A stretch of DNA of 32,000 nt, taken from positions 505,520-537,519 of the forward strand of contig OY781061.1 of NCBI GenBank assembly GCA_963676515.1, in the 5' to 3' direction. The DNA comes from Candidatus Cloacimonadota bacterium (lineage in GTDB: Bacteria; Cloacimonadota; Cloacimonadia; G963667145). The notes beneath the pieces are model-generated. The model worked only from the letters and a program-made list of their open reading frames with translations. It had not been told where the DNA came from and did not search any database. Shown one piece after another: positions 1-28,107 of this stretch. Positions within the stretch are counted from its first letter, which is position 1. Each line of letters begins with the position of its first letter. Position numbers and translations under genes: made by a program.

Positions 1-278
1 TTCTCAATTTTGCTGTCCAATCCAACATCTTCGGCTCTTTTTTGCACAATATCCAGCATCGCTTTTTGCAAATCAAGAGCAAAAACTTTGCCCCTATCAC
101 CAACCATTTTAGCCAGTGGCAAGGTGAAATAACCAGGTCCACAACCAATTTCCAAAACTTTGTCGCCACTTCGCACATAAGAAGCAAACATCTTTTTCGG
201 GTTGTGAACTAACTTGCGAATTTTGCTTAACAAGAATCCAGATTTTTCTACTGGACACACCCTTTTTTCGTTTTTCAT
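1..278 (-). CDS. Class I SAM-dependent methyltransferase, N-terminal part (runs off the window edge)
   Basis: Manual reverse translation gives MKNEKRVCPVEKSGFLLSKIRKLVHNPKKMFASYVRSGDKVLEIGCGPGYFTLPLAKMVGDRGKVFALDLQKAMLDIVQKRAEDVGLDSKIE. It contains the motif I signature LEIGCGPG. Its ATG (276-278) overlaps the TAA stop of the upstream exporter gene (TAATG), so it is the last gene of that operon. Confidence 0.75.
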   Translation of the reverse strand, partial: MKNEKRVCPVEKSGFLLSKIRKLVHNPKKMFASYVRSGDKVLEIGCGPGYFTLPLAKMVGDRGKVFALDLQKAMLDIVQKRAEDVGLDSKIE

Positions 279-2626
279 TATACTTTTCCTCTTTCAACCA
301 CTTTTTGGGGACCAAAGGGCTGGAGCATCCTGATCAAAACGGGAGTGATGAAAAAATCGGATAACAAGGCTGAGCTGATACCGATCATCGCTAAGATTCC
401 CATACTACGCAAAACTTCCGCCTGCGACACTAAGTACACGGAGTAGTTGAGGATCAGCACCAGAGATGTCATCACCAGAGCCACACCGATGGATGCAAAG
501 CAGTCCGAGGAAGCTCTTTTGTAGCTACCGGTCTTCTGATAATAGAGCTTATAGTGATTGATGAAGTGAATGGTATCGTCCACGGCAAGTCCCAGTACCA
601 TCGGCATAATCGTCACCGTGATCATATCCAGAGGTATATCCAGATAGCCCATCGCTCCACCTGCTAGCAGGGCTGGAGTAATGTTGGGAATCATCCCAAT
701 GAGTCCGATGCGGATACCACCAAAAGCGAGCATCAAAATTATCGCTATTATCACCAAAGCTAGCAAAAATGAGTAAATCTGTCCCCAAGTAACCCGCTCT
801 GCCATGGCGATCATCTTCGCCATCGTACCCACTTCTTGGATTTTGGCGGTAGGAAATAGCTCCGCCGCTTTCTTCTTAATCTTAGCAATATCTTTGTCCG
901 CTAAACCTGTATCCATTTCCGAGAGTTCCACCTGGATGCGGTAGCGGCGATAGTCGTAATCTATCCAGCGAGTTGCTTCCTTGCCTCCAGAGTTCTCATA
1001 GAGCAAAAGCTCTTGTGCTATTGCACTTTTTGTGTCTGGGATGCGAAATTCGCTTTCTTTATCATCAAAAAGCACTTTATTCAAATCTTTGAGGATTTTC
1101 ACGATGGAGGTAACTCTTTTGGTCAAGAGAGTCTCCGATTGGATGAACGAAACCAGTTTGTCCAACTTCCTCATATTCTCTGGCTCTTTCACAGATCCGT
1201 TTTCGGGAAATTCTATGATAATGTTGTAAGAGTTCAGCGACCCTATCTGCGATCTAGCAACTTTCATTATTCTTTTCACATAAGGAACTTCCGCTCCCAC
1301 AGTGTCTTCGGCATCAAAAGATATACGAAACAATGAAAAGCCAAAACAGCCCAGCAAAGTTATGAGGATGTAGAAAAAGATTATTTTTTTGCTGTTACCA
1401 AATATCCAATCGCTAAGTTGCCTTAGCCAACCAGTTGCCCACCGCAGATGTGCTACCGTCTCTGCCAAATTTGCTTGCTTGTCTTTACCAAAAGAGAAGA
1501 GAATCGGTGTAAGGCTCAGCACCAAAAGAAAGCTGACCAAGACGATGGCAGCCGAGGTCAAGCCTATCCATTGCAAGATTGGCGAGGAGATAAAAATGAA
1601 AGAGCAAAGTGCCAAAACCGTGGTCAACGCCGTGAAGAGAATAGGCCAGCCCGTTTCTTTTAGTGCATAATAAACGGACTCTTTGCGTTTACCTGTTTCG
1701 GCAAATTCAGTCTTAAAAAAGTTGAAGAAGTGGATGTTGTAACCCACCGCCACAGCAAGTCCCAAGAAAATAGGCATCGTTACCACCGTAGGGTCGAAAG
1801 TTAGCCCCAAATGCCCTTGCAACCCAAAAACCAGCATCAGTCCGAAGACGATAGTCAAAAAGGGAACGAGCATCCCACGCAAAGAGCGAAATGCGAACAA
1901 AAGAATAATGAAAACTACCAAGAAAGAGAACTTCATCACTCGGGGAACTTCCGATGCAAAGAAGTCAGTTTTCCCATACATTACCACTGGTATACCCGTA
2001 GCTTTGGGGTTCAGCTGAGCGTAGGCTGGATTTCGGGATATATCTAGCACCGCCTTGCCTATGTGCAAAGAAGCGTCGTCATCCTCTTTGTCATACCTGA
2101 GTAGTCGCAAGATTATCCATGCTTCTTTACTGTCTGGGCTTATCAGTTGCCCTTTTATTAGCTCTTTGGAAAGAGCCTTAGTGCGTAACTCTTCCAGAGC
2201 TTGCTTGTCCGTAGGAATCTCCTCGGGTATCAGATCCTCTATCACCATACCCCAGTCTGTGCCTTGGCTAAACTCCAATGCGGTGATGCTCAAAACATCA
2301 TCGGCATAAGGGACTTTGTCTTCTAGCTCATATCCCATTTGTCTTATTAACTGTAAATTCTCTTGCGTGAAAACATCGTCACAGCTGATATGCACAGCCG
2401 CCATCTCCGTATTGCCAAAAATCGCCTCCATCTGGTTTTGATCGACGATAGTTTTATCCTCATCACCAAACCAGTTGTCTTCGTCCGAAGATTTCTTTAG
2501 GTGTGGCAAGCCAAAAGCCGTGACCACCAAAAGAGCCAGCAAGCAAAAAAGATACACCCATCTGCGTTTTACGATCCAGTTACCATAGCGGTAAAACCAA
2601 CTATTTATCTTGAGCAAATCTAACAT
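278..2626 (-). CDS. MMPL/RND-superfamily membrane exporter (about 12 TM helices, two large periplasmic loops)
   Basis: 782 aa ORF. It has an N-terminal TM helix, a large soluble loop, a block of 5 hydrophobic helices (GIPVVMYGKTDFFASEV...), a second loop and a second 5-6 helix block ending in VDDTIHFINHY. This is the typical MMPL / predicted RND exporter layout. Confidence 0.85.
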   Translation of the reverse strand: MLDLLKINSWFYRYGNWIVKRRWVYLFCLLALLVVTAFGLPHLKKSSDEDNWFGDEDKTIVDQNQMEAIFGNTEMAAVHISCDDVFTQENLQLIRQMGYELEDKVPYADDVLSITALEFSQGTDWGMVIEDLIPEEIPTDKQALEELRTKALSKELIKGQLISPDSKEAWIILRLLRYDKEDDDASLHIGKAVLDISRNPAYAQLNPKATGIPVVMYGKTDFFASEVPRVMKFSFLVVFIILLFAFRSLRGMLVPFLTIVFGLMLVFGLQGHLGLTFDPTVVTMPIFLGLAVAVGYNIHFFNFFKTEFAETGKRKESVYYALKETGWPILFTALTTVLALCSFIFISSPILQWIGLTSAAIVLVSFLLVLSLTPILFSFGKDKQANLAETVAHLRWATGWLRQLSDWIFGNSKKIIFFYILITLLGCFGFSLFRISFDAEDTVGAEVPYVKRIMKVARSQIGSLNSYNIIIEFPENGSVKEPENMRKLDKLVSFIQSETLLTKRVTSIVKILKDLNKVLFDDKESEFRIPDTKSAIAQELLLYENSGGKEATRWIDYDYRRYRIQVELSEMDTGLADKDIAKIKKKAAELFPTAKIQEVGTMAKMIAMAERVTWGQIYSFLLALVIIAIILMLAFGGIRIGLIGMIPNITPALLAGGAMGYLDIPLDMITVTIMPMVLGLAVDDTIHFINHYKLYYQKTGSYKRASSDCFASIGVALVMTSLVLILNYSVYLVSQAEVLRSMGILAMIGISSALLSDFFITPVLIRMLQPFGPQKVVERGKV

Positions 2627-2641
2627 TTTATCTCCTATTCT

Positions 2642-3796
2642 TTAAAAAGAGTATTCCGCTTTACACCACGCCATGGAGTTATCGGAAAATTTACCAAAAT
2701 TGCCTTGCTGGTCGCCGTCGTAATAGTCGTAACCTAGCAAAATGTGCAGCCCTTGACTGCAATCGTAGTCGCCACTAAATTTACAAAAAATATCTTGCCG
2801 AGCAAGGCTATTCACCGCTTGAGCAGTAAATTCTAACTGCTGACGAAAAACTTTCTTCTTGAGCGTGAGGGTCAGCAAGCTCTCCGACTCATCCCTTTGC
2901 ACATCGACAGAGTAGTCGCAAACCAAATCGGCTGTTAGCTGAGCTGTAATAGTCCAGTCGTTCCCCGGATAGCAGTCTATCCCCAGCAATCCATCCAGCC
3001 ACGGCTTCTCTACCGTTCCTCCAGCAAAAAACTTCCGCTGGTAATAAGCAGACTCCAGACGATACACAAAAGAGCCTTGTGCTGCGGAAGCTTCCACGCC
3101 TACATAGCCAGTTCGCTTGTAGTCTATCACCAAGTCACCTGCCGAGAAACTTTGCACAGGCAACCAGAAATAGTAGCCACTCACTGCAAAATCAACCGCT
3201 CCCAAGTTTTTACCCAACCTGCCTGCTATTTGGGCAGATTCTAGCGTCTTCTCGGGCAAATCGTGCTCCACACCCTTATAACCAATAACATTCCACAAAG
3301 AGTCCGCCAATGGGTACTCTGCTCTGGTCATGTACGGCAGATAGATGATGTCGAGGTCAAAATAATCGGGAGAGTAGCTGAACTTGCATGCATCCACCGC
3401 TAGGCGACTGTCTTGCAAATCTTGGCTGAGTCCCAGCGAAAAGTCTTGCGAGCAGATAATGTCCGTGATACGCAGTCCGTCGGCTTTCCCCCAAGCGATG
3501 ATCTGGCGACCAATCCTCACATCCCAAGAGTCGGCAAAGTAATCGAAATAAGCTTCCTTGAGTTCAAAACTGCTCTGGTCTGTATTATTATCACGCATCG
3601 CCTTCAAGCTAGAAAAGAAGTAGGTGCTTTGCTTGTCTTGGCTCAGTTCCAGCAAAAGCCAGTTCTTATCCAGCAAACTTTGCTGCTCGCCTTGACTCTG
3701 CCAGCCGTGATGCGAAGCAACTTTACCTGCCACATCTAGGGCAAAAATTTGCCAGCAAAAAAAAGTGAGCATTAATAGAAAAAGTTTTTTCATCAA
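2642..3796 (-). CDS. Outer-membrane beta-barrel protein (DUF1302-like)
   Basis: 384 aa. Signal peptide MMKKLFLLMLTFFCWQIFA, the motif RIGRQIIAWGKADGLRITD typical of DUF1302-type barrels, alternating hydrophobic pattern, and a C-terminal aromatic end ...KAEYSF. Its start overlaps the upstream gene's stop (ATGA). Confidence 0.65.
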   Translation of the reverse strand: MMKKLFLLMLTFFCWQIFALDVAGKVASHHGWQSQGEQQSLLDKNWLLLELSQDKQSTYFFSSLKAMRDNNTDQSSFELKEAYFDYFADSWDVRIGRQIIAWGKADGLRITDIICSQDFSLGLSQDLQDSRLAVDACKFSYSPDYFDLDIIYLPYMTRAEYPLADSLWNVIGYKGVEHDLPEKTLESAQIAGRLGKNLGAVDFAVSGYYFWLPVQSFSAGDLVIDYKRTGYVGVEASAAQGSFVYRLESAYYQRKFFAGGTVEKPWLDGLLGIDCYPGNDWTITAQLTADLVCDYSVDVQRDESESLLTLTLKKKVFRQQLEFTAQAVNSLARQDIFCKFSGDYDCSQGLHILLGYDYYDGDQQGNFGKFSDNSMAWCKAEYSF

Positions 3797-4557
3797 AACT
3801 TACCTCTTTTAAGATTTGCAACTTTGAAAATTCTATCAGACACCTCTTGGTTATATTTCACCGATTGTATTTCCAGCAATGTCGTGTGTTTCTCCTGCTC
3901 ATTGTCCATAAAGCGAGAAAACGCTGTCCAGATACCGTCGATTTTTTGGAAATTACTGGCTGTCATCCTCTTCAAAAATCTACCTCTTTTATCGTAAAAC
4001 TCACCTTTTACCACCAGCAAATAATCTTTACTCACCCACTTCACCACTTTGGAGTACTGGTACCCTTCCTCTTTGGGAGTAGACTCCACCACCCAGCAAT
4101 CCGTGTCAGCAAACTTCTCCTCTTGCAGAAGTTTATGCGTATCTTCCTCTGGCTCTCTTTGTCCCATATCGTCATAGGTAAAATCTGTCCCCATAAAGTA
4201 GTCGCTCGTGCTAGAAGAAGCTATCCGCCTTACTTTCCGCAATGCTGGCATATATAGCCATTTGTCGTCATCTTTCGTAGCGTCATCGTACGACCAGTTC
4301 AAAAAAGCTGTCCCCGCAACATCGGCAGGTTGCAAAAACACAAACAGCGATTTCTCATCTTGCCCAAAATCTTTACGAATCATCTTCGTCTGCCTCTCCC
4401 TTGTTCTGCCTTGTCTATTGGTCAGCACCATCTTACTTTCGGAAACCATCGTCTTCCCATCGTCTCTTGCGTCCACTTGCTCCATTATCTCCAATCCCGT
4501 GATCGAAAACAGGCTACTCCCAACCGCTAAAACTATAAATACAAATAAACTTCTCAT
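3793..4557 (-). CDS. LolA-like outer-membrane lipoprotein-sorting family protein
   Basis: 254 aa with a signal peptide. The motif WLYMPALRKVRRIASSSTSDYFMGTDFTYDDM matches the conserved core of the LolA_like family, which usually sits next to DUF1302 proteins and RND exporters. Confidence 0.75.
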   Translation of the reverse strand: MRSLFVFIVLAVGSSLFSITGLEIMEQVDARDDGKTMVSESKMVLTNRQGRTRERQTKMIRKDFGQDEKSLFVFLQPADVAGTAFLNWSYDDATKDDDKWLYMPALRKVRRIASSSTSDYFMGTDFTYDDMGQREPEEDTHKLLQEEKFADTDCWVVESTPKEEGYQYSKVVKWVSKDYLLVVKGEFYDKRGRFLKRMTASNFQKIDGIWTAFSRFMDNEQEKHTTLLEIQSVKYNQEVSDRIFKVANLKRGKF

Positions 4558-8544: not shown

Positions 8545-9954
8545 ATGAATTATTCCACACTCGCACAATGGTGCAACGAGCCTCTACCTCAGTTCCTGAA
8601 ATTCAAGTCGATGGAAAGAGCCGCAGACCAATACCGCATCTCGTTCACCAAGAGTTATCTTTTCTTGCAAATAAACCTCTCGGGAAAAGACAACTTCTGC
8701 TTTTTTACCCAAGACGATACGCTGGACTTCACGCCTGCTTTTTCGGGGGTTATGAGCCTTTTCCAGAACGCTGTCCTCTCGGAAATAAGCCCACTTGGCA
8801 ACGACAGAATTTTAAGCTTCTTATTCCACAAAAGGTCTATTTACGGCGAAAATCTCCTGCTAAAAATTGTAGTGGAACTTATCCCGGGCAAACTGAATAT
8901 TATCTTCTTGGAAGAGAACAAGATTTTGCAAGCCAAAAAGATTTACTCTTTTGCCGACAATCCAGAGCGGCAAATACTCTCTGGGCAAAAATACCTCTTG
9001 CCTGTAAACAAAAACAAGCAAGAAATTTGCTACCGCCCTTTGCCGTGGCACGATCAAGACTACAGCTTCGAATCTGTAAACGACTATCTGGAGCATTTTT
9101 TTTACAACCACATCCACCTGCAAAGATTAGCTATTATCAAAAATAGAGAAGAGAATCAGCGTAAGAAAAAAATAGAGAAAGCTGAAACAAAACTCGCTCA
9201 TCTCAGGGCGACTTGGCAAGATTACAGCAAGACAGAATATTGGAAGATGGCTGGCGAACTGCTAAAATCGGCTTATCACACGATCACGCCAGGATTACAA
9301 GAGATCTCAATAGTAAACTACTGCGACCCTAAGATGCCCAAAATTATTATAAAACTAAAAAAAGAGCTCTCTCCAAGGCAAAATGTCGATCTCTACTTCA
9401 AAAAATATAAGAAAGGGATCAACGGGAAAAAAATCATCGAAAGTCGCATCAAAATGACAGAAGCCGAAATACAGAATCTGAAAAATCAGCCAGACTACAG
9501 TCAAGAAAAAGCAGAATACACGCCCAAAGCAAAACCTAATGAAAAAAAATCTCTGAAGCAGATCAAGATAAACGAAATTTTAAAAATCGTAATCGGCAGA
9601 AACGACGCCGAGAACAACACCATTACCTGCAAACTAGCAGGAAAAACAGATTTATGGTTTCACACCAGAGCTATCAGAGGCTCTCATATCGTGATATTTA
9701 ACCCTTACAAAAAAGATGTTCCCCAAAAAATAATCGAAATTGCAGCGGGTCTGGCTGCCTACTATTCCAAAGCCAAACATTCGGGGAAAGTAGCCGTAGA
9801 CTACACTCACATCCGTTATGTGTGGAAGATAAGAAAGGGTCGTTTAGGACAAGTAAACTACAAAAATCAAAAAACTGTGTTTACCAAACCAAGATCGATG
9901 CGGGAAGTAAAAAAAGAGTTAAACGAATTTATAAAAGATACTAGCAAAGGCTAG
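8545..9954 (+). CDS. NFACT-family protein with a DUF814 (NFACT-R) domain, RqcH/FbpA-like
   Basis: The C-terminal segment IVIGRNDAENNTITCKLAGKTDLWFHTRAIRGSHIVIFN is the DUF814 signature. A central coiled coil is present (REENQRKKKIEKAETKLAHL). The start is uncertain; I prefer MNYSTLAQW at 8545 over 8479, which would overlap the putative terminator. Confidence 0.7.
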   Translation: MNYSTLAQWCNEPLPQFLKFKSMERAADQYRISFTKSYLFLQINLSGKDNFCFFTQDDTLDFTPAFSGVMSLFQNAVLSEISPLGNDRILSFLFHKRSIYGENLLLKIVVELIPGKLNIIFLEENKILQAKKIYSFADNPERQILSGQKYLLPVNKNKQEICYRPLPWHDQDYSFESVNDYLEHFFYNHIHLQRLAIIKNREENQRKKKIEKAETKLAHLRATWQDYSKTEYWKMAGELLKSAYHTITPGLQEISIVNYCDPKMPKIIIKLKKELSPRQNVDLYFKKYKKGINGKKIIESRIKMTEAEIQNLKNQPDYSQEKAEYTPKAKPNEKKSLKQIKINEILKIVIGRNDAENNTITCKLAGKTDLWFHTRAIRGSHIVIFNPYKKDVPQKIIEIAAGLAAYYSKAKHSGKVAVDYTHIRYVWKIRKGRLGQVNYKNQKTVFTKPRSMREVKKELNEFIKDTSKG

Positions 9955-10604
9955 TGAATCTCGATAACTATCCGCCTATTAAGGTCACGATTGGACTGAA
10001 TAGGTCTGCCGCTAGAGTCTTTATTGGGAGCTAAAGGCTTAATATAAGCGTACCCAGAAGCTTTCATCTTATCCGGCGATATTCCCTCGATGATAAAGTA
10101 ACGGACAATATTTGAGGCTCTACCCACAGACAACTCCCAGTTAGAAGGAAAGCGTCTCGTGTTTATCGGCACATCGTCTGTATGCCCCTCGATATCTATA
10201 TTAGGGTCGTAGTAATTAATTGCCTGAATGGAATTAGCTATCTTTTCTAAAATCCCAATATTCTTTTTGATAATAGTGGCTTCTCCCGAACGATAAAGAG
10301 CGTCTGACAAGATGTTTATCGCAATAGATGAACGATTAAGTCGTACAGAAACTATTCCCGCCATCCTTTCCTCTAGAAGCATAGAATCCAAATCTGTTTT
10401 CATCCGCGATAAAGGTGTAGAAAAATCATCTTCGTTAGCTTCTATCTCAGCACGATAACCTTCTTTGAACTCCTGCCACATACCAGAGTTCGTAGTAGAC
10501 ATAGAAACCAACAAAACAAAAAAACAAAGAAGAAGAGTAACCAAATCAGAGTAAGTAGTCAGCCAAGACTCATCAATAAGAGTCTTTTTTCTTTCGAACT
10601 TCAT
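9951..10604 (-). CDS. MotB/OmpA-family stator subunit (peptidoglycan-anchored)
   Basis: 217 aa. The N-terminal TM segment WLTTYSDLVTLLLCFFVLLV carries the conserved channel Asp. The C-terminal OmpA-like domain reads IEGHTDDVPI...FPSNWELSVGRASNIVRYF...NRRIVIEI. Confidence 0.85.
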   Translation of the reverse strand: MKFERKKTLIDESWLTTYSDLVTLLLCFFVLLVSMSTTNSGMWQEFKEGYRAEIEANEDDFSTPLSRMKTDLDSMLLEERMAGIVSVRLNRSSIAINILSDALYRSGEATIIKKNIGILEKIANSIQAINYYDPNIDIEGHTDDVPINTRRFPSNWELSVGRASNIVRYFIIEGISPDKMKASGYAYIKPLAPNKDSSGRPIQSNRDLNRRIVIEIH

Positions 10605-10632
10605 TTAATAACTCTCTTGCCACACTTGACAA

Positions 10633-11433
10633 TCAAAAATCGTCACCAACATTCATAGCATTTTCTCCATTATCCTCTTTGTCCACTAGCGAACGCAAAA
10701 AATCTTCCACATAAAAAGAAGATTTTTCTTGTATAATAAGGATAACACCTTCCAAAATAAGGTTTTTACGAAACATAACAGACATAGCTATATCTACAGA
10801 TTTATTCGCTCCTGGAATAAAAAAAACTCTAGCTAAAATAAGTCCATAAAAAGTGGTAATCAGAGCCACCGCCATCGCAGGACCAATCTTGGATGGATCG
10901 TCTAATTGACTAAGCAAGATAACCAAACCTATCAAAGTACCCAACATACCAAAAGCTGGCGAAGAACCACCTAAACTTTTCAAAATCTCAGAAGTTTCTT
11001 CTGCGTTTTGATTCTCTCTGGATATTTCGTTCTGGATAAACTCTTTGGACTCTTCCAGAGAGTATCCTGTGGACAAAATAGAAAAAACATATTTATCAAA
11101 AGGGTCGGTAACTTCGGAATATATCTCATCATAAGCTTTCTTGCCACCACTTTGCACTCTTTCTGCCCAATCTTTGATACGACTAATTTCCTGAGTATAA
11201 CTTTTACTATCCATAGGGTACTTAAACATTACCCTGAAAGCAGCGAGAATTGCTTTGCTTGTCCTTACTACTCCACGACCTACAAATTCACTAATGAGCG
11301 TACCACCTACCACGATCAAAATACTGGGGTAGTTGATAAACACTTGCCAATTTGAGGTAGCACTCAATATAGATATTGCAATTACAACCCAAACGAGAAT
11401 AAAAGAGATAAAAGAACTTACAGAACCTATCAT
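10633..11433 (-). CDS. MotA/TolQ/ExbB-family proton-channel subunit (MotA/PomA-like size)
   Basis: 266 aa. It has two N-terminal TM helices, a cytoplasmic loop of about 100 aa, then SPAFGMLGTLIGLV and AVALITTFYGLILARVFFIPGANK. The two prolines are characteristic of MotA. Confidence 0.85.
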   Translation of the reverse strand: MIGSVSSFISFILVWVVIAISILSATSNWQVFINYPSILIVVGGTLISEFVGRGVVRTSKAILAAFRVMFKYPMDSKSYTQEISRIKDWAERVQSGGKKAYDEIYSEVTDPFDKYVFSILSTGYSLEESKEFIQNEISRENQNAEETSEILKSLGGSSPAFGMLGTLIGLVILLSQLDDPSKIGPAMAVALITTFYGLILARVFFIPGANKSVDIAMSVMFRKNLILEGVILIIQEKSSFYVEDFLRSLVDKEDNGENAMNVGDDF

Positions 11434-11436
11434 AAA

Positions 11437-12093
11437 TTAGTACCCTATTTTATTTAACATTTGCCTCACACCTTGGATACTATTATTTAAACGCAAAGAG
11501 TTTGTCCAATTTTTACGAGCCAATGATAAATTACCCAACATATAATAAACACTTCCTTTCAAAGCATAAGCTCTTGCGGTAGGTTTTTGATTTATAGAAC
11601 TGTTAACTTGCTGCAAAGCTTTTTCATAACTACCTGCATAAAAGCTATTTTGAGCTTGTACCAAAAAATCACTTTCTGAAGGACTTGAGCTTGCATTTTC
11701 ATCTTGAGAAGAAGGCGTTTCAACGCTAGCATAATCGTCTAGAGATTCACCTGTAGATCCAGATTTTGAAACATCTATCTGAACATTGTTATCTCTAGGG
11801 TCAAGGCTCAAAATCACTTCTGAAGATTTGTTTCGATACTTGATCAGAATCTCATTTTTTTGAGGACGAAGAGTGTTCTGTTGGATAATCGTAGTGCTTT
11901 GCTCTGTATCCTGATCCACTACTCCTACTCCCCTATCTATACTTTTACCTGCTACTGTTCCAGAAGAGCTAACCATAGCCTCTCTTTCCGAAACTGTACT
12001 TTCCTCTACTCCCCTTTTAAGAACATACTTATTCCAAAGGGAACATCCAGAAAACAAGAAAAGACTAGAAATTATAACTAAAATTAATCTCAT
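11437..12093 (-). CDS. TPR-containing lipoprotein
   Basis: Lipobox LFLFSGC, a low-complexity Ser/Glu/Asp-rich linker, and a C-terminal TPR-like segment YEKALQQVNSSINQKPTARAYALKGSVYYMLGNLSLARKNWTNSLRLN. It sits 3 nt upstream of motA. Confidence 0.6.
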   Translation of the reverse strand: MRLILVIISSLFLFSGCSLWNKYVLKRGVEESTVSEREAMVSSSGTVAGKSIDRGVGVVDQDTEQSTTIIQQNTLRPQKNEILIKYRNKSSEVILSLDPRDNNVQIDVSKSGSTGESLDDYASVETPSSQDENASSSPSESDFLVQAQNSFYAGSYEKALQQVNSSINQKPTARAYALKGSVYYMLGNLSLARKNWTNSLRLNNSIQGVRQMLNKIGY

Positions 12094-13216
12094 ACTTCAG
12101 CGCCCCAAACTCAATATAACTACTTTCATTTTGTTTCAATGTCCTACCAAACGGTATAACTCCCAGACCAAGACCTACTTCTATATCTTCGGTAAGATCG
12201 GATGTAGCACCAATCATGGTGGTCAAGAAGCTCCCAGAATAATTAATAGGAACAAAAAACTCACCTTTCATATATGGCTTAAGCCAATAATTGTCTTTTA
12301 AAGATTTAAGCTGACTTTCTTTTTTATAATATTTCGTCATCACTCCACCACCTGCGTAACCCAAGAAGGCTGTCGGTAAAGTGGAAAAACCCTCAATATT
12401 GTTTTCCAATGTCAGCTGGCAATTCACGATAGACAAGCCTGCCGAGAGAGTCATCATAACCTCTGCAAAAGAGAAGTTAGATTTTTGCTTACGCACAGCT
12501 CCTAGACGATAATCGATCATCCTTGCAGAGTTGCTACTACTTCCCCCATAATTACTGTCAAAGATAGACACTCCGTCTCTTTTGTAGTCGTTGACTGTAA
12601 AGAAGCCAACATTAAAATCAAGAGCGTACTGCTTTGGAATATCTATATCACGGTCGTTGTTAGGTCCTTCGATATAAGCTTTCGACCAAATAATCTCTCC
12701 TGTTTTGTTGCTTACCATCTTTAAGGAGAGCAAAACATCTCCGTAGGCACTACGAGTGCAATTCCCCTCGATGAAAGCGTCTATGTTGTACTTCTCTCCC
12801 ATATGTCGGAGCTCATCAAAAGATCTGGCAGAATTAACATAACTAAAAGAGGTATCGGTAATTTTTACTCTGGCGAGATTGAACTCTGGCACTACCACCA
12901 AATCTATCGCCTCGTTGTTTAAAAGGACTTGCTCTAGTTTCGACTTCACAAAACGCACCATCCCGATAGAAATAGCGTCCCGATCAGCTTTGACACGATA
13001 GACTGCAACCCTCTTGACCCCTAAAGGGAAATTGAGGACAGACTCCTGCACTCTGAGCATAATGCGAGAGATATTGCGAACTTCCGATCTGTCACTACGA
13101 GGATAAGAGCCCACAGCACTCATGTTCGAAAATTGATTATACTCAAACTGAGCAAAAAGAGAAGAAAAACAAACAGTTAAAACAAAAACAAATAAAACTT
13201 TCTTAATACTCTTCAT
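12065..13216 (-). CDS. Putative outer-membrane protein: periplasmic N-domain plus beta-barrel-like C-half
   Basis: Signal peptide MKSIKKVLFVFVLTVCFSSLFAQ (start moved to 13216, 10 nt after the upstream stop). The C-terminal half has an alternating pattern and ends ...EINFSYNF. The N-domain pattern (RVAVYRV..., IDAFIEGNCTR...DVLLSLKMVSNKTGEIIWS) recalls CsgG/LpoB/TolB-N-type periplasmic scaffold domains, but this is recollection only. Confidence 0.5.
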   Translation of the reverse strand: MKSIKKVLFVFVLTVCFSSLFAQFEYNQFSNMSAVGSYPRSDRSEVRNISRIMLRVQESVLNFPLGVKRVAVYRVKADRDAISIGMVRFVKSKLEQVLLNNEAIDLVVVPEFNLARVKITDTSFSYVNSARSFDELRHMGEKYNIDAFIEGNCTRSAYGDVLLSLKMVSNKTGEIIWSKAYIEGPNNDRDIDIPKQYALDFNVGFFTVNDYKRDGVSIFDSNYGGSSSNSARMIDYRLGAVRKQKSNFSFAEVMMTLSAGLSIVNCQLTLENNIEGFSTLPTAFLGYAGGGVMTKYYKKESQLKSLKDNYWLKPYMKGEFFVPINYSGSFLTTMIGATSDLTEDIEVGLGLGVIPFGRTLKQNESSYIEFGALKYEINFSYNF

Positions 13217-15182
13217 TTGCTGCTCTACCTTCACTTTGGTTTCCACCAATATTACGCCCGCCAGCTTCTCTAATCTCTTTTCTGATTACGGACATCATTT
13301 TTCTTCTGGATCTCTCTATATCATCTGCTTTTAATTTGTTTTCATTTATTCTCAGTTCTGACCTAATAATCTCTCTCATCCGCTCGGGAACATTAGACAA
13401 AATAGAGTTAATCCTCACCTCGTCTACTCCAACCAACGCTGCAGACAATAATTCTCTGTCCATTTTTTGGATAGCTCTGACCATAATATCTTCTTCCAAG
13501 TTGCCTAGGTCATCAAAAGCTATAAAGTATTTCAAGACTTTCTCTGCTGTCTCCACATCCGCTTTCGTGATGTCGTCGATAAACTCTTTTTGCTGAGATG
13601 TAGTGAGAGTATCCAATATCTCCAGCATCTTGCCAGCACCATCGGAAGAAACATACTCCATTCCTCGCATCTTGAGTGCCTCTTTTGCCAAACGACTAGA
13701 GACCTCTTTATACACAGAAGTCGGGATTTTGCCCAGTTTGCCCATATTTCCCATCACCGCAGACCGCTGCTCCAATGGATAAGACGCCAGTAGTTCCGAA
13801 GCTTTCTCTGCAGACACTTGAGTAATGACCAGTGCTTGCACGCCCTCAGGTTCGCCTTTGAGAGCTTGTCTTATCTGTTCTACGGACATTGCGTTCAAGA
13901 AACCAAACATCCCTGTGTCGTCCTTGCCATCGTCAGTGACGGTCAAAGAACTCCAAGCATTTTTAAAATTTTGCAACGCTTCCAACTTAGTTTTCGTGTC
14001 CAAATCTTCCATATTGCGAATATTCCAAGAAAGCAACTTGAAATCGTCGTGCGAAACTTTACCTTCCAAAAGGTCAAGCAAATTTTCATCTATAGCTTTG
14101 ATTAGCTTGGTAGCTTTATCTATACCTTCGTCTCCACCACTATCTACCCAACCTTGCAAGACAATGCCCACATTTTTCGCTTCTGCCAAAAATTTATTAA
14201 TCGCAAAAGAACGAAGTTTTTTGTATTCTGCAATCTCCATTTTTTCGGGCTCAGAAGTTCGATTGACTTTCCGAAGCTCCCGCATCTCTTGCATCAAACT
14301 ATCAAACTGCTCATCATATCGAGGGAAGTTTACTTTCGGTTGTACCATATTGGAGTCTTGCACTCCAGAGTTCTTTTTGGATATGAAGAAAAAAGCTACC
14401 AAAAATCCAATTAGCAACAACAAGCCTATCAATCCTGCGATTAAATAAGTTAAGAAGTCTGAGTTATCTTCGTCTGGAAGAGGCTCGTCTTGGACTTGCT
14501 CATCCTCCATCTCTTTTCTTCTTTTTTCTTCTTCTGCTAACCTAGCAGCCTCTTCTTCGGCTTTTTTAGCCTCTTCTATCATTTTTTGCTTTTGATTAGT
14601 AAACTTCACCAAAGTCACATTGACAATGTCGCCTCGGTAAATATCTATCCCAGCCTTCATCTTTACCAGTTCATCTATAAAAGAGACATCTTCTGGCGTA
14701 TAAGCAGATGCGTCCAACATTACATTTACAACTAGGTTGTCTATCTCATAGTCCGATGCTCCGCCCATGCCTGTAGGCACCCGACTCTCTGTAATGCTAG
14801 TCTGACTAGGCATCGAGATATCTCCTAGTCCTTCTAGATCGTCCACAAACTCGTTGACGAATCTTCCCTCGGTACCAGGCATTACCAAATTCCCAAGACC
14901 GATACCAGAACTTACAGCTTGTGATGTTTGCAACATCCCCATACCCAAACCCATACCTTGCCTAGCTTTCAGGTTGACAGCAATATCAACCTCGTAAGTC
15001 TCTTTTTCGCAATAAGATGCCAAAGTGGATGAAAGTCTTATTTCATAAGCTCTAGATATCTTGTCCGCGTACATTATGACGCTGAGAGGCTCACTACTCC
15101 CCTGCTCAAAAGAGTACTGAGCTTGTAATAGACTAAAAGCCCAAAAAACAAGTAAAAATAATCTAAATTTTCTTGTTTGCAT
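13203..15182 (-). CDS. Membrane protein fusing a FliF-like periplasmic ring-building motif, one TM helix and FliG middle + C-terminal domains
   Basis: 659 aa.
- Residues 1-21 form a signal/anchor.
- Residues 145-194 (YEIDNLVVNVMLDASAYTPEDVSFIDELVKMKAGIDIYRGDIVNVTLVKF) parallel the FliF C-terminal periplasmic signature (...LSVAVVVN...IEDL...G....RGD.L.V....F).
- An EK-rich coil follows, then a TM helix at 243-267.
- Residues 425-500 resemble FliG_M (IRQALKGEPEGVQALVITQVSAEKASELL).
- Residues 520-640 resemble FliG_C (KYFIAFDDL; NVPERMREIIRSELR aligns with the torque helix MSQRAADILRDDL). Confidence 0.7.
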   Translation of the reverse strand: MQTRKFRLFLLVFWAFSLLQAQYSFEQGSSEPLSVIMYADKISRAYEIRLSSTLASYCEKETYEVDIAVNLKARQGMGLGMGMLQTSQAVSSGIGLGNLVMPGTEGRFVNEFVDDLEGLGDISMPSQTSITESRVPTGMGGASDYEIDNLVVNVMLDASAYTPEDVSFIDELVKMKAGIDIYRGDIVNVTLVKFTNQKQKMIEEAKKAEEEAARLAEEEKRRKEMEDEQVQDEPLPDEDNSDFLTYLIAGLIGLLLLIGFLVAFFFISKKNSGVQDSNMVQPKVNFPRYDEQFDSLMQEMRELRKVNRTSEPEKMEIAEYKKLRSFAINKFLAEAKNVGIVLQGWVDSGGDEGIDKATKLIKAIDENLLDLLEGKVSHDDFKLLSWNIRNMEDLDTKTKLEALQNFKNAWSSLTVTDDGKDDTGMFGFLNAMSVEQIRQALKGEPEGVQALVITQVSAEKASELLASYPLEQRSAVMGNMGKLGKIPTSVYKEVSSRLAKEALKMRGMEYVSSDGAGKMLEILDTLTTSQQKEFIDDITKADVETAEKVLKYFIAFDDLGNLEEDIMVRAIQKMDRELLSAALVGVDEVRINSILSNVPERMREIIRSELRINENKLKADDIERSRRKMMSVIRKEIREAGGRNIGGNQSEGRAANEEY

Positions 15183-15457
15183 TTTTATTCCCGATATTAA
15201 ACAATGTGATACCTTTTTTTACTTCTTATCATCAAACGGAATTATAAATAGTATATGTGTCAAACCTTTTTTTCCTTTTTAAGATTTTCTTGCCCCTCTT
15301 TGTGTACTTAAATTCATACAAGCCTGTGTCTTAATTTCATTTTTTATTTTTTTTAAAATTTTATAAATTTTTATACTTTATTGCATAATTACAAGTTAAG
15401 TGCTTTTGCCTTTGGTTTAATTCTTGACTTATATCTGTTCTTTTTTAGAAACGGACT

Positions 15458-16447
15458 ATGAAAAAAAAATTACTTTTTTTACTCTTTTTTTGTTCTCTTT
15501 TTTTGATTTTTGTTTATAAACAACATTTGTCTTCAAAAAAAATCAGCAAAACAAGAATTGCTTTAGGAACTTTTATCGAGATCAGTCTGGAAGGAAATCC
15601 AAAGAGGATAGATAAATACATCGACACTTGCTTTGAGATTATCGAAGATTTACAACACAAACTGGGCTACCAAAATCCCAAAAGCGATCTAAGCTTTATA
15701 AATGGTTGCCAAAAAGCTCCTATCACTCCAGAGATTTTTTCTCTTTTAGATTTTTGCCAAGAGTTTTATCTTCTTTCAGAAAAAAGATTTGACCCAACCG
15801 TCGGAGCACTAATAGATCTTTGGGATTTTACTAAAAAAAGAGTGCCTACTCCTGCTAAGATAAAGCAAGCACAAAAAATTTGCGGGTTAGAAAAAGTCAA
15901 ATACGACACCCTTATGCTCATTAAACCTAAAAACCTGAAAATTCACCTGGGAGGAGTCGCCAAAGGGTTTATAATGCAAAAAGTTTGCGACTATCTACAA
16001 GAAAAGAAAATCAAAAGTGGATACATAAATGCTGGAGGAGATATTTCTATTTTTGGGAACGAATACAAGCAAATAGGAATTGCTCATCCTAGGCAAAAAG
16101 AAAAACTTATCGATACTATCCAAATAAAGACAGGTGCGGTAGTAACCTCGGGAGATTACGAGAGGTTTTTTGTAAAAAACGGTAAAAGGTATCATCACAT
16201 CATCGATCCTATCAGCGGATACCCCAGCGAAAACTGCGTCAGCGTTACGGTGGTGGATTCTAGCATCCTCAGAGCCGATGCCCTGGCTACCGCCTATTTC
16301 TTGATGCCCGTGGAAGAAGCTATCCTTATGGCTAATCGACGCAATCGACGCAAGAGTGCCGTTTTGATCTACTACCTAGACCACGAAGGAGCGTTGCAAA
16401 GCAGAGAGTCTTGCGAATTTGCTCAGTACAGGATGAAAAAAAGATGA
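15458..16447 (+). CDS. apbE: FAD:protein FMN transferase ApbE family
   Basis: 329 aa with a signal/anchor. Motifs RFDPTVGALIDLW, LGGVAKGF, INAGGDI and SGDYERFF..GKRYHHIIDPISGYP are typical ApbE signatures. Confidence 0.85.
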   Translation: MKKKLLFLLFFCSLFLIFVYKQHLSSKKISKTRIALGTFIEISLEGNPKRIDKYIDTCFEIIEDLQHKLGYQNPKSDLSFINGCQKAPITPEIFSLLDFCQEFYLLSEKRFDPTVGALIDLWDFTKKRVPTPAKIKQAQKICGLEKVKYDTLMLIKPKNLKIHLGGVAKGFIMQKVCDYLQEKKIKSGYINAGGDISIFGNEYKQIGIAHPRQKEKLIDTIQIKTGAVVTSGDYERFFVKNGKRYHHIIDPISGYPSENCVSVTVVDSSILRADALATAYFLMPVEEAILMANRRNRRKSAVLIYYLDHEGALQSRESCEFAQYRMKKR

Positions 16448-21755: not shown

Positions 21756-23120
21756 ATGATAAAAGTTATAATTGACGAGAAACTAGATAATTACAAAAAG
21801 CAAATTAGAGATGTTATTGATCTTAGCTTTAACTATTTGGGTATTCAATACGAGATTATTTCGGGTCTAGTGGAGATAAATGTGGAGGATGTCCTCGTTT
21901 GTTACTCTCTACAAAAACCTTCCACACGAGAAATAACGGAACTTATCGGGCTTAGTGCCAGCACAAATATATTTTTTATCACTATCAATTTGGAGCTATA
22001 CGAAAAAATCGGTCTTTCTAGGCTAAAATCTCTGAAAAAAGAGTTTCACGATTTTTACATCTTAGGAAACGAACCGCCAACTATTGAGAAGAAAAAAGGC
22101 GAATTTGGCAACTTTTTCTTTTACAACTTCGACCTTTGGGGCAACCTTTTCCAGCTAGCTAACTACCAAAAAAATAGCTCCATACCCGTCTGCAATCTAC
22201 TAATATCTGATTTCTTGCAACTTGTCAAAAATTGTGTCTCTAACGACGAGTTTTTCCTCATTCGCACAAAACTTTGGCCAGAAAATCAGAAATTTGCTCT
22301 GTGTCTGACTGCAGAGATCGACAAACTATACAAATGGCAAAGCTACTCAAAAACTTTGAAAAAAATCTTACTCAACCTCTTTGCTCACCCTTTGGCAGCT
22401 CTGCAAGAGTACTTTGAACTAAATTTCAAAAGCGAAGAACCTTATTGGGTGTTCCCTCTCTTGCAATCTATCCCCAATATTACCTACTGTTTGCCCGCAA
22501 AAAATGACAACTTTGATCCGCAAGAGAAAAGTGTCGCTAATCAACTCTCAGCCTTGGAAAAACAACTAATTAAACTAGAGACCAAAAAGTTGCCCACCTA
22601 TAAGAGCTTTTTATTCCCGCTCTGTTACTCAGAGGTTTCCGTTTGTTTGAATAGTAGCGAGTTCGTAAAAGGTGGCTACAAACACCTGAGCGAATCTGCC
22701 GCCCAAGCTCTGGTCGCTACCAGCATAGACAATGGACACCTAGCTGGTGGCGTAACTTGTCTGGGCTTTAGATTTTCCGACCTCTACGACATACCCTACG
22801 CCTTCAAGATACTCGAAAATCTAGTAAAACTAGGGAAAAAACCCGCTGTTTACTTCGCCGACCAAAACCAAATCAAGAGTTGGCTAAAACTTCGCCAAAA
22901 AATCAAATGGGTAGTCGAGCAAAATAAGGTGAAAATCCTCAGCAACTACGATATAGAAAACCTTGTGCTAGAAATTATCGGAAATTACGAAGTGGAGTCC
23001 CACACAGGTTGTACTTTGCGAATCGAAAAAAACCTACTTTACATCAGCAATATCAAAAAATACACCACAGCAACTCTCACGCTGAAGAAATTTTATCGTC
23101 TTAATCGACGGATAGATTAA
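21756..23120 (+). CDS. Hypothetical protein (454 aa, no motif I can recognise)
   Basis: A long uninterrupted ORF with plausible codon usage and no strong hydrophobic segments. I recognise no family by eye. Confidence 0.5.
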   Translation: MIKVIIDEKLDNYKKQIRDVIDLSFNYLGIQYEIISGLVEINVEDVLVCYSLQKPSTREITELIGLSASTNIFFITINLELYEKIGLSRLKSLKKEFHDFYILGNEPPTIEKKKGEFGNFFFYNFDLWGNLFQLANYQKNSSIPVCNLLISDFLQLVKNCVSNDEFFLIRTKLWPENQKFALCLTAEIDKLYKWQSYSKTLKKILLNLFAHPLAALQEYFELNFKSEEPYWVFPLLQSIPNITYCLPAKNDNFDPQEKSVANQLSALEKQLIKLETKKLPTYKSFLFPLCYSEVSVCLNSSEFVKGGYKHLSESAAQALVATSIDNGHLAGGVTCLGFRFSDLYDIPYAFKILENLVKLGKKPAVYFADQNQIKSWLKLRQKIKWVVEQNKVKILSNYDIENLVLEIIGNYEVESHTGCTLRIEKNLLYISNIKKYTTATLTLKKFYRLNRRID

Positions 23121-23533: not shown

Positions 23534-23621
23534 TGGTACCAGAGACCGGACTTGAACCGGTACAGGCTAAAAGCCCGAGGGATTTTAAGTCCCTTGTGTC
23601 TACCAATTCCACCACTCCGGC
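23534..23621 (-). tRNA. tRNA-Leu (anticodon UAA), long variable arm, CCA encoded
   Basis: Reverse complement: GCCGGAGTGGTGGAATTGGTAGACACAAGGGACTTAAAATCCCTCGGGCTTTTAGCCTGTACCGGTTCAAGTCCGGTCTCTGGTACCA. It folds as a cloverleaf with anticodon loop CTTAAAA and T-arm ACCGG/CCGGT. The acceptor stem has two G-U pairs. Confidence 0.85.
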
Positions 23622-23635
23622 AATCTTTTGGAAAT

Positions 23636-23709
23636 TGGAGGCGACACCCAGATTCGAACTGGGGATGAGGATTTTGCAGACCCTTGCCTTACCACTTGGC
23701 GATGTCGCC
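23636..23709 (-). tRNA. tRNA-Cys (anticodon GCA), CCA encoded
   Basis: Reverse complement: GGCGACATCGCCAAGTGGTAAGGCAAGGGTCTGCAAAATCCTCATCCCCAGTTCGAATCTGGGTGTCGCCTCCA. Acceptor GGCGACA/TGTCGCC, anticodon loop CTGCAAA, T-loop TTCGAAT. Confidence 0.9.
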
Positions 23710-23719
23710 GCAAAAAAAA

Positions 23720-23794
23720 TGGAGCGGAAGACGAGAATTGAACTCGCGACCCTCACGTTGGCAACGTGATGCTCTACCGCTGAGCTACTCCCGC
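23720..23794 (-). tRNA. tRNA-Gly (anticodon GCC), CCA encoded
   Basis: Reverse complement: GCGGGAGTAGCTCAGCGGTAGAGCATCACGTTGCCAACGTGAGGGTCGCGAGTTCAATTCTCGTCTTCCGCTCCA. Anticodon stem TCACG/CGTGA, loop TTGCCAA. Confidence 0.9.
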
Positions 23795-23879: not shown

Positions 23880-24614
23880 CTATTTCGAGCTTGGGCAAAA
23901 GCGGTTTAATTCCAGTATCCCGCAAACACCTGCGGCGGTAGTGCCAAAGACTGCATAATCTTTGCCGAAAGTTTCGATAGCGTTCATTATTTTGTCGAAA
24001 GAGTCGTTGCAAAGCGTAGAGCCCGTGAAAAGGATAAAATCTCCTGTTTGGAGCAAATCGTCGTTCACCAGATTGCCATCTTCGATAGTGATGCCAAATT
24101 TCCGTTTGCCTATCCAGTCGGGATCTAGGTCGCTACATCGCACTTGCAATCCAGCATCCAGTAACTTTTGCAAGATAGCGGGATTAAGCCCAATCATCGA
24201 TATTTTGCCTTTTTGCTCTCGTAACTGCTCCGCTATCCAGCGTCCGCACTCTTCTGGCTCTTCGTCCTTACAATGAATGGTCTGCCCACAACAGCCCAGA
24301 TAAGCTGCCACGGCGTTTATCGTAGCCACCTGCAAAGCTCTATTGGCTGACTGTGAGCTATCCAGAGCGAAAACCTCTTGCAAAGTGCCCACAAATTCAG
24401 CAGGGTTGGTGGTAAAGGCTTGCCCTTTGAACCCCTGAAAATCGGCTTGGATCATGATCTCTTTGCCTTTTTGGATAGGAAAATCTTGCCTCTGGGGAGT
24501 GCCAATAGCCTCTGTTACACTCAATCCTTTAACATAGATAGCGACCTGCGTGTGTAGCTCGCCTACCAATAACTTGCCTATCTCGTGCAGGCTCAATCGT
24601 AAATAATCTTTCAC
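23880..24614 (-). CDS. DUF4213/DUF364-type putative heavy-metal chelation domain protein
   Basis: 244 aa. The N-terminal pattern (...VKGLSVTEAIGTPQRQDFPIQKGKEIMIQA...ANRALQVATINAVAAYL) and the Rossmann-like C-half (ISMIGLNPAILQKLL...) resemble that family. GTG start with a GTGA overlap on the upstream stop. Confidence 0.55.
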   Translation of the reverse strand: MKDYLRLSLHEIGKLLVGELHTQVAIYVKGLSVTEAIGTPQRQDFPIQKGKEIMIQADFQGFKGQAFTTNPAEFVGTLQEVFALDSSQSANRALQVATINAVAAYLGCCGQTIHCKDEEPEECGRWIAEQLREQKGKISMIGLNPAILQKLLDAGLQVRCSDLDPDWIGKRKFGITIEDGNLVNDDLLQTGDFILFTGSTLCNDSFDKIMNAIETFGKDYAVFGTTAAGVCGILELNRFCPSSK

Positions 24615-25474: not shown

Positions 25475-25763
25475 GATATTTGCTCACCAAATCTTCTATA
25501 ATTCCGCTAGCTCCTAGCACGGTCTTGATGCCTTGCTGAGCGAAAAGATCTATCGCCATAGAACCCATACCACCAGTGATAATCACATCCGCTTTTTGTT
25601 CGCCCAAAAATTTCGGCATCACTCCTGGAGCGTGCCCAGGTGATGCTACAAATTCTGTTTTCACTATTTTGCCGTCTGCTACATCCACCAAAGCGAAATA
25701 GGAACACTGTCCAAAATGTTCTTCAACGCTCTTTTTATCGTTAGTTGGAAAAGCTAATTTCAT
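25413..25763 (-). CDS. NifX/NifB-C-type (dinitrogenase FeMo-cofactor-binding fold) small protein
   Basis: 116 aa. MKLAFPTNDKKSVEEHFGQCSYFALVDV...ADVIITGGMGSMAIDLFAQQGIKTV matches the HFG...f.i.d / ...vi.g.iG core of that family. Confidence 0.75.
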   Translation of the reverse strand: MKLAFPTNDKKSVEEHFGQCSYFALVDVADGKIVKTEFVASPGHAPGVMPKFLGEQKADVIITGGMGSMAIDLFAQQGIKTVLGASGIIEDLVSKYLADNLISKGSACTEHSRGSH

Positions 25764-25776
25764 TTTTTCTCCTTGA

Positions 25777-28106: not shown

Positions 28107-28107
28107 T

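Follow-up and report, generated by a model that had tools for sequence, protein, structure and literature searches.

A five-gene cassette in Cloacimonadota and other bacteria joins a FliF/FliG-like rotor protein to a flagellar-type stator and two putative envelope partners

Can the rotor and stator of the flagellar motor be put to use without a flagellum? The question is raised by a five-gene operon on the minus strand (positions 9951–15182) of a 32-kb stretch of DNA from a Candidatus Cloacimonadota bacterium (contig OY781061.1, from a chromosome of ~1.55 Mb; the whole stretch is referred to here as the window). The operon packages a FliF/FliG-like fusion protein (the rotor protein) with MotA and MotB, and with a signal-peptide protein (protein X) and a tetratricopeptide repeat (TPR) lipoprotein. 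The original prediction described it as a tightly packed cassette with no other flagellar genes nearby and a composition for which it knew of no described system. Our analysis suggests that the cassette is, on balance, probably a self-contained rotor-stator machine, non-flagellar and ion-driven, with a coupling to the outer membrane. All five open reading frames (ORFs) were confirmed at the coordinates first given for the operon, and are listed here in gene order with their lengths in amino acids (aa):

13203–15182, minus strand: rotor gene ("FliFG"), ORF of 659 aa
12065–13249, minus strand: protein X gene, ORF of 394 aa, with the true start probably at Met12 (13216)
11437–12093, minus strand: TPR lipoprotein gene, ORF of 218 aa
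10633–11433, minus strand: MotA gene, ORF of 266 aa
9951–10604, minus strand: MotB gene, ORF of 217 aa

The tight packing was borne out: at the first two junctions the genes overlap, by 47 and 29 nt, and the last two junctions are gaps of 3 and 28 nt. Likewise, no flagellar genes were found beyond the operon in the 32-kb window, the other genes of which are housekeeping genes.

The rotor protein matched the Pfam families FliG_C (E = 1.6e-12, 48.1 bits), FliG_M (E = 1.1e-9, 38.8 bits) and YscJ_FliF_C (E = 3.3e-5), all above the Pfam gathering cut-offs, so that the first outcome named as refuting the original prediction, a lack of significant FliG/FliF matches, did not occur. An AlphaFold2 (AF2) model based on eight close homologues only was not usable (pLDDT 42), and a 109-sequence alignment was used instead (pLDDT 80.9). 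The latter model consists, in order, of a cleavable-looking signal peptide, a periplasmic ring-building motif (RBM) with an insertion, a charged helix, a transmembrane (TM) helix and an all-helical cytoplasmic domain (aa 290–640). In a Foldseek comparison with the PDB, the cytoplasmic part aligned with full-length FliG over ~320 columns (8wiw/3hjl, E about 1e-9), and the periplasmic part aligned with the RBM3/S-ring region of FliF (8t8p/6scn/8zdt, E = 4e-3 to 3e-2, probability 1.0), which was the only part of FliF matched. The domains were placed as follows:

14601–15086, minus strand: periplasmic RBM (aa 33–194), placed by the secondary structure of the model and the YscJ_FliF_C match at aa 145–194
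14376–14465, minus strand: single TM helix (aa 240–269), placed by the AF2 model helix and hydropathy, with cytoplasmic Lys residues after it
13257–14255, minus strand: FliG-like cytoplasmic domain (aa about 310–642), placed by phmmer against solved FliGs, column statistics, the TIGR00207 score and a neighbour-joining (NJ) clade

In the model the RBM has an alpha-beta-beta-alpha-beta fold, with a disordered insertion (aa 79–142) between the first two strands. The insertion bears an L/M-P-G motif in which P102 is invariant (109/109 family members), and the RBM ends in an RGD that aligns with the GRGDLLNV of Vibrio FliF and contains an equally invariant aspartate (D185, 109/109). The insertion may be the positional equivalent of the beta-collar and disordered loop of FliF, which we take, from published MS-ring structures, to sit at the corresponding point. 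Because the Foldseek and RGD matches cover only RBM3 plus full-length FliG, the rotor protein is predicted to be a FliF without RBM1 and RBM2, fused to a complete FliG (N, M and C domains). The original description, a fusion of a FliF RBM, a TM segment and FliG_MC, hence holds for the domains that it named, while "MC" understated the FliG part, as a FliG_N-like region is also present.

Which functions of FliG could such a protein retain? Residues were counted as columns over the 109 family members, with reference alignments from phmmer against solved FliGs (E. coli or T. maritima numbering):

Torque-helix R281 (E. coli), R601 in the rotor protein: R or K in 106/109
D288/D289, S608/E609 in the rotor protein: conserved in part
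K264, V584 in the rotor protein: unconserved
R297, K618 in the rotor protein: unconserved
FliM-binding EHPQ, EPEG in the rotor protein: Glu alone conserved
R160 of EHPQR, N479 in the rotor protein: unconserved

The FliG M-C architecture is retained and the FxF hinge motif is present. These patterns suggest that the torque interface between MotA and FliG is at least half retained and that FliM docking has been lost, and therefore that the cassette would have neither a C-ring nor switching. The fliG equivalog model TIGR00207 scored the rotor protein at 84.3 bits (cut-off 226.7) and so misses it. In a distance-based, unrooted NJ tree of the FliG M-C region, a split with 99% bootstrap set all 109 cassette sequences apart from five canonical FliGs (those of Thermotoga, Aquifex, Salmonella and Vibrio, plus a fifth representative), and diversity within the cassette clade was greater than that among the five canonical sequences. 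The cassette FliG accordingly appears to be a separate lineage with no recent borrowing. Two soluble, TM-less FliG-like proteins with family-type motifs (F.FL...Q...LLK.E), P0134 (310 aa) and P0146 (331 aa), were also encountered. The FliG_N start of P0134 looks canonical, and this protein groups, if weakly (bootstrap 0.53), with the canonical FliGs. The two proteins may represent split forms, or intermediates that link flagellar FliG to the fusion family.

The stator genes were likewise predicted to be of flagellar type. The window MotA matched Pfam MotA_ExbB (E = 1e-22), and its best NCBIfam matches were PomA (137 bits, cut-off 341) and MotP (131 bits), against 27.8 bits for TolQ (cut-off 221) and 14 bits for ExbB. 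It aligned with solved PomA over aa 27–251 without large gaps (102 bits), with Asp/Glu at the positions of PomA E96/E97 and Gln at that of R88. Cassette MotAs of seven lineages scored 98–130 bits on every flagellar stator model, never reaching the cut-offs (237–394); that of V. agarivorans, for example, scored 127 bits on PomA (cut-off 341). On TolQ, cassette MotAs scored at most 28 bits. MotB matched MotB_plug (E = 1e-14, 54.3 bits) and OmpA (E = 3.4e-14, 53.4 bits), and alignment with B. subtilis and C. sporogenes MotB placed its channel Asp at D20 (YSD) within WLTTYSDLVTLLL. On these profiles, the window stator would be PomA/MotP-like, with a plug, a channel Asp and an OmpA-like peptidoglycan-binding domain, in agreement with what had been proposed for both subunits. 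A Zorya system was rejected, given the MotA length of 266 aa and a PADLOC search that gave no match to ZorA, ZorC, ZorD or ZorE and only generic ZorB/MotB similarity. A Tol/Ton-type motor was rejected on the TolQ and ExbB scores and the presence of the plug, and a phage origin of the cassette was also considered and rejected.

The two remaining proteins are the putative envelope partners. Protein X has a signal peptide and a C-terminal half with at least eight amphipathic beta segments, and it ends in a sequence of the type recognized by the beta-barrel assembly machinery (BAM), YEINFSYNF; it is likely an outer-membrane beta-barrel protein, consistent with the earlier description of a signal-peptide protein with a barrel-like C-half ending in Phe. 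It matched no Pfam family and no PDB sequence. Comparison of protein X with one FlgO by hhalign gave E = 0.1, and a scan of the N-terminal domains of 10 X members gave FlgO matches in 3/10 and an LpoB match in 1/10, all sub-threshold (E = 0.04–0.2). The N-terminal periplasmic domain is thus possibly FlgO/LpoB-like, which would fit a ring or scaffold beneath the outer membrane, a role that is not established. A hidden Markov model (HMM) built from FCB-type X members alone found the Vibrionaceae X proteins (E = 7e-7 to 7e-5, in a search space of 5000 proteins). The TPR lipoprotein carries a lipobox (LFSGC, read off the sequence), a conserved N-terminal beta segment and two to three TPRs at aa about 145–205 (Pfam TPR_2/TPR_21, E = 2e-4, sub-threshold). 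HMMs trained only on cassettes with the gene order FliFG-X-TPR-MotA-MotB recovered every TPR partner (E = 1e-11 to 1e-20), and the lipobox, the TPR matches and the homologues in all sampled cassettes (E = 1e-11 to 1e-90) together back the assignment of this gene as a TPR lipoprotein.

Is the cassette a peculiarity of one genome? Orthologues of the rotor protein (70–91% identical) were found on five complete Ca. Cloacimonadota/Cloacimonadales metagenome-assembled genome (MAG) chromosomes of ~1.55 Mb each, where all five genes and their flanks are syntenic; the ORFs are intact in six genomes. Pairwise ratios of nonsynonymous to synonymous substitution (dN/dS) were 0.03–0.17 for each of the five genes, pointing to strong purifying selection, and dN of the rotor gene was below that of the flanking apbE, GT2 glycosyltransferase and NFACT genes. 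A profile search of 1.84 billion cluster representatives returned 1951 rotor-family matches at E < 1e-3, including 80 at E < 1e-30; the family comprises at least 150 clusters at 50% identity, and among the best 150 of the 1951 matches nearly all were 560–730 aa long with an N-terminal signal and one central TM. Consistent with this, a hydropathy scan of 161 family proteins gave one strong TM near aa 180–300 in most full-length members. Pfam matches among 70 family members comprised FliG_C in 70, FliG_M in 69 and YscJ_FliF_C in 18, and no NCBIfam model reached its cut-off for the rotor-family proteins scanned. Members are largely from MAGs or metagenome contigs, with Vibrio agarivorans, Aliivibrio fischeri and A. 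finisterrensis among the named ones, and bear the public names "FliG C-terminal domain-containing protein", "hypothetical" or "flagellar motor switch protein FliG".

Genomic contexts were sampled from 12 independent lineages (18–44% identity to the window rotor, 37–69% GC). MotA (MotA_ExbB) and MotB (plug, OmpA) directly adjoined the fusion gene in 12/12 contexts and a short TPR protein was also present in all 12; a clear X homologue was found in 10/12, so that conservation of the five-gene neighbourhood, which the original prediction had left to a search of other genomes, was largely upheld. Flagellar genes lay within 10 kb of the cassette in only one of the 12 (L009, from V. agarivorans). 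Two gene orders were seen: L006, L010, L011, L015, L019 and L020 share FliFG-X-TPR-MotA-MotB with the window lineage, and the proteobacterial-type loci L009, L013 and L017 have X-TPR-FliFG-MotA-MotB. In one Bacteroidota-like contig, the neighbours of the cassette carry sorting tails of the type IX secretion system (T9SS). The cassette is therefore widespread and conserved from Cloacimonadota to relatives of Vibrio, and its rotor proteins form a large, unnamed family.

Two loci depart from the common composition. In L008 (12805–16573, on a 2.17-Mb contig), no X homologue was found nearby, and MotB overlaps by 8 nt a run of MoxR AAA+, DUF58, DUF4381 and VWA (Bat-like) genes, followed by a pilin-like gene; these genes may be functionally linked to the cassette or may stand in for X. 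In L013, the 398-aa protein at the position of X has no detectable homology to X, and MotB is followed (13581–14927) by a 448-aa protein with no Pfam family, a signal-like N-terminus and a BAM-like end (...GVQQQF), which may be an additional or alternative outer-membrane partner.

How does this composition relate to known machines? With the core of the flagellar motor (FliF MS-ring, FliG and MotA5B2/PomA5B2), the cassette shares FliG N/M/C and the torque-helix Arg, an RBM3-type ring-building domain with a C-terminal RGD, and a stator with plug, channel Asp and OmpA-like anchor. Whereas flagellar FliF has two TM helices and RBM1-RBM2-RBM3, the cassette rotor has one RBM, one TM and a fused FliG, and, unlike flagellar FliG, this FliG is without the FliM-binding EHPQR motif. 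The cassette also differs in its linkage to the X barrel protein and TPR lipoprotein, and in that genes for the flagellar type III secretion system, rod, hook, filament and FliM/FliN (C-ring) are absent from the window and from within 10 kb in 11/12 contexts. The available parts of a 2025 survey of MotAB homologues (Puente-Lelievre et al., PMC12505986) describe the plug, the OmpA-type anchor and an expanded cytoplasmic interface as flagellum-specific; the cassette MotB shares the plug and linker, OmpA-like domain and channel Asp of these flagellar-type (FIT) stators, and no FliG-fusion stator partner is described in those parts.

Tol-Pal, ExbBD-TonB, AglRQS-Glt, GldLM/PorLM and ZorAB are likewise ion-driven inner-membrane motors with periplasmic or outer-membrane partners, and the logic of the Tol-Pal operon, with its TPR protein and outer-membrane partner, is similar. 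However, these other 5:2 motors have a TolQ/ExbB-type or GldL/ZorA-type A subunit and transmit force through either the B subunit's periplasmic part or a partner like TonB/TolA, whereas the cassette pairs a flagellar-type A subunit with a FliG domain in the cytoplasm. The one natural FliF-FliG fusion that we found described in searchable literature is that of Chlamydiaceae, a protein of ~330 aa with RBM2 and one more RBM-like domain, two TM helices and a FliG_M-like domain only, which is without a link to MotAB and was proposed to act with the injectisome (Bergeron 2016, PMC4768692). Like the cassette rotor, it is a natural fusion that joins a FliG-like cytoplasmic domain to a shortened FliF, in bacteria not regarded as flagellated, but the cassette rotor is ~600–660 aa long, RBM3-like, has a full FliG and is always beside MotAB. 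In searchable literature, a MotA-FliG partnership was found only in flagella and no cassette of this composition was found described, in line with the novelty first suggested for it. A recent preprint found rotor proteins without filaments in 11% of non-motile genomes, sometimes read as remnants, and asks whether rotor components serve another function (bioRxiv 10.1101/2024.12.05.626484). Within the phylum of the window, a literature survey counted 5/46 genomes as flagellated and 41/46 as without flagellar systems. Reports of "flagellar assembly" for Cloacimonadota rest on pathway annotation, in which the fliG, motA and motB of the cassette would count.

If the cassette is indeed a self-contained rotor-stator machine, its mechanism would be envelope-spanning and ion-driven. 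The 659-aa protein would be exported N-terminus first and anchored by its one TM helix, and its periplasmic RBM3-like domain would oligomerise to build a ring in the manner of RBM3 in the MS-ring, thereby setting the FliG domains in a ring on the cytoplasmic face. Units of the MotA5B2 type would be anchored to peptidoglycan by the OmpA domain of MotB and gated by the plug; ion flow via the channel Asp would cause MotAB to push the FliG torque helix, turning (or dragging) the ring in one direction only. Without the FliM-binding motif there would be no C-ring and no switching. On its periplasmic face, the ring with its conserved LPG loop would engage the TPR lipoprotein and the periplasmic domain of X, a coupling by which ion-motive energy of the inner membrane would reach the outer membrane. 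The output could be movement of surface proteins, envelope maintenance or transport. A more specific form, in which a FliF(RBM3)-FliG ring turned by MotAB passes torque to a complex of the X barrel and the TPR lipoprotein, as a filament-less rotary engine and a widespread sister lineage of the flagellar rotor-stator core without type III export, is a possibility to which we give somewhat less than an even chance.

Several observations weigh against a self-contained, non-flagellar machine. Ring formation, rotation and the contact or coupling of the rotor with X and the TPR lipoprotein are steps that we infer, and the fold of protein X is not established. The RBM3 match is modest (Foldseek E about 4e-3; YscJ_FliF_C at 24.8 bits against a cut-off of 23.8), and YscJ_FliF_C is matched at E ≤ 0.01 by only the 18/70 family members given above. 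The second charge pair of the torque interface (MotA R90 with FliG D288/D289) is conserved only in part. The V. agarivorans cassette (L009, 1–13127) is found directly downstream of flgP/flgO/flgT, in the metagenomic contig L015 the cassette is followed by cheR, and some Cloacimonadota (the 5/46 surveyed genomes) are flagellated. Lastly, the mutant assay of motA2 and motB2 in V. fischeri, considered below, was of soft agar only.

Could the same proteins act without rotation? In this alternative no ring is built, and MotAB would drag or remodel a single-pass FliG protein, or the FliG protein would gate ion flux through MotAB, giving a force transducer akin to Tol-Pal or Ton, a lateral conveyor or a signalling device. 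The Tol-Pal system consists of a stator, an inner-membrane transducer, an outer-membrane partner and the TPR protein CpoB. The cassette would offer a parallel to each, with a possible TolB_N/LpoB-like domain in its outer-membrane partner and a CpoB-like TPR protein. The modest RBM3 similarity, the disordered collar region of the model and the co-operonic MoxR-DUF58-VWA genes of L008 are also compatible with such a device. Nonetheless, RBM domains build rings in every characterized case (FliF, SctJ/D and SpoIIIAG; PMC4768692), the invariant RGD and LPG motifs match the ring and collar region of FliF, and the FliG M-C architecture and hinge motif are kept. We consider a non-rotary device unlikely, if the least improbable of the alternatives.

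A second alternative is that the cassette serves an ordinary flagellum, as a conditional second rotor/stator, a brake, or an assembly or storage platform (e.g., on surfaces, under viscosity or in a host). In its favour, the V. agarivorans cassette adjoins flgP/O/T, where FlgT closely matches that of V. alginolyticus. The A. fischeri cassette (L017, 8415–13143), on the other hand, is carried on a contig of 1.35 Mb, which the VF_A locus tags identify as chromosome II. Its neighbours include torYZ and a two-component system, and it is followed by genes for an 817-aa molybdopterin protein and a 365-aa NapC/NirT-type cytochrome, VF_A0188 being annotated as TorZ. Hence, flagellar linkage is not conserved within Vibrionaceae. 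The published Campbell primers fall inside the MotA (motA2, one mismatch) and MotB (motB2, three mismatches) genes of this cassette, so its stator is motA2B2 (VF_A0186/VF_A0187); the genes upstream are presumably VF_A0183–85.

Brennan et al. (2013, PMC3948606) report that motA1B1 mutants of V. fischeri are non-motile, that motA2 and motB2 insertion mutants have normal soft-agar motility and that FlrA activates motA1B1 but not motA2B2, and conclude that the motA2B2 paralogues probably diverged from motility. The available passages and supplements make no mention of the upstream FliF/FliG-like, TPR and X genes or of a wider distribution. In V. fischeri the cassette stator thus differs from that of the flagellum in being dispensable for swimming and outside the FlrA regulon, although the soft-agar format of the assay leaves room for a conditional role. 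Expression of motA2 and motB2 falls about 2-fold, together with that of some flagellar genes, on RscS overexpression in V. fischeri, and the cheR of L015 and the weak FlgO-like signal in X are further points in favour of an accessory. Against one are the lack of flagellar neighbours in 11/12 contexts, the location beside T9SS-tail proteins in a Bacteroidota-like contig and the presence of the cassette in a phylum in which 41/46 surveyed genomes are without flagellar systems. Moreover, the rotor brings a ring-building domain of its own and lacks the FliM-binding motif, so that it could not plug into a C-ring. An accessory to the flagellum thus seems to us improbable.

That the rotor protein is simply the organism's own MS-ring and FliG, in a diverged and fused form with a complete regulon elsewhere in the genome, is very doubtful; this was the second outcome named as refuting the original prediction, and the evidence runs against it. 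Flagellar genes do occur in some Cloacimonadota, and engineered FliF-FliG fusions work in Salmonella according to cited literature, but the rotor is without the RBM1/RBM2 that house the export gate and without the EHPQR motif, falls far below the fliG cut-off (84 against 226.7 bits) and forms a clade separate from canonical FliG. In addition, the constant partners of the cassette are X and TPR, not fliE, fliH or fliM, and orthologues in Vibrionaceae coexist with flagellar genes (as seen in L009), with a stator dispensable for swimming in V. fischeri. The least credible alternative, in which the cassette is what decay has left of a lost flagellum and now serves no function, and for which the filament-less rotor proteins of non-motile genomes sometimes read as remnants might be cited, is excluded for practical purposes by the dN/dS of 0.03–0.17 and the lower dN of the rotor gene than of its flanks, and is further opposed by the intact ORFs in six Cloacimonadota genomes, the conservation of key catalytic and structural residues, and the retention of the five-gene set, non-flagellar partners included, across phyla.

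Regarding the rest of the window, the operon is separated from the divergent apbE by an AT-rich region, and GC drops to 0.315 across 15001–16000:

15183–15457 (275 bp): AT-rich intergenic region between the operon and apbE, a presumed promoter region by position only

A promoter scan found no minus-strand sigma-70-like site in 15183–15457, and site counts over the scanned region were no higher than in shuffles. Elsewhere, three co-directional minus-strand genes (278–4557) encode a LolA-like/DUF1329 protein, a weakly DUF1302-like protein and an MMPL/RND-type transporter, and look like an envelope lipid or lipoprotein export module. A 454-aa ORF without a Pfam or PHROG match lies at 21756–23120 (plus strand), and three tRNA genes, Leu(TAA), Cys(GCA) and Gly(GCC), cluster at 23534–23794 (minus strand). 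The latter are followed by a co-directional minus-strand run (23880–28920) encoding a DUF364 protein, an SBP_bac_11 solute-binding protein, two P-loop proteins of the CbiA/ParA type that carry 4Fe-4S domains, and a ParA ATPase of the Mrp/NBP35 type, which may be a metal-cofactor or Fe-S assembly cluster. Two tandem paralogous Bro-N genes of 283 aa on the plus strand (29429–30280 and 30698–31549) both match phrog_15286 (E about 1e-114) and lie in a stretch of lower GC (0.37–0.38 versus 0.49 just upstream); they may be a prophage or mobile-element remnant.

What is new here is that stator genes known earlier only as the orphan motAB paralogues motA2B2 of V. fischeri, without impact on motility in soft agar, are orthologous to the stator of a cassette whose rotor gene goes unmentioned in the available passages and which has not been annotated as a system. 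We see a substantial chance that this cassette, although built from known flagellar modules, constitutes a distinct class of machine. A FliG rotor with MotAB and outer-membrane proteins, in the absence of an export gate, rod, hook and filament, would add a class to the ion-driven machines built on 5:2 motors, and would help explain the orphan motA2B2 of V. fischeri as well as the filament-less rotor proteins that 11% of non-motile genomes contain (bioRxiv 10.1101/2024.12.05.626484). Calls of a "flagellar assembly" pathway in uncultured lineages such as Cloacimonadota may be inflated, because cassette proteins are publicly named "flagellar motor switch protein FliG". The cassette offers a natural minimal rotor-stator pair for studies of torque generation and of the origin of the flagellar motor, and as A. 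fischeri is genetically tractable, the question is directly testable there. Should the filament-less rotary engine prove true, it would show that the torque module of the flagellum is able to exist, and perhaps arose, without the flagellum itself.

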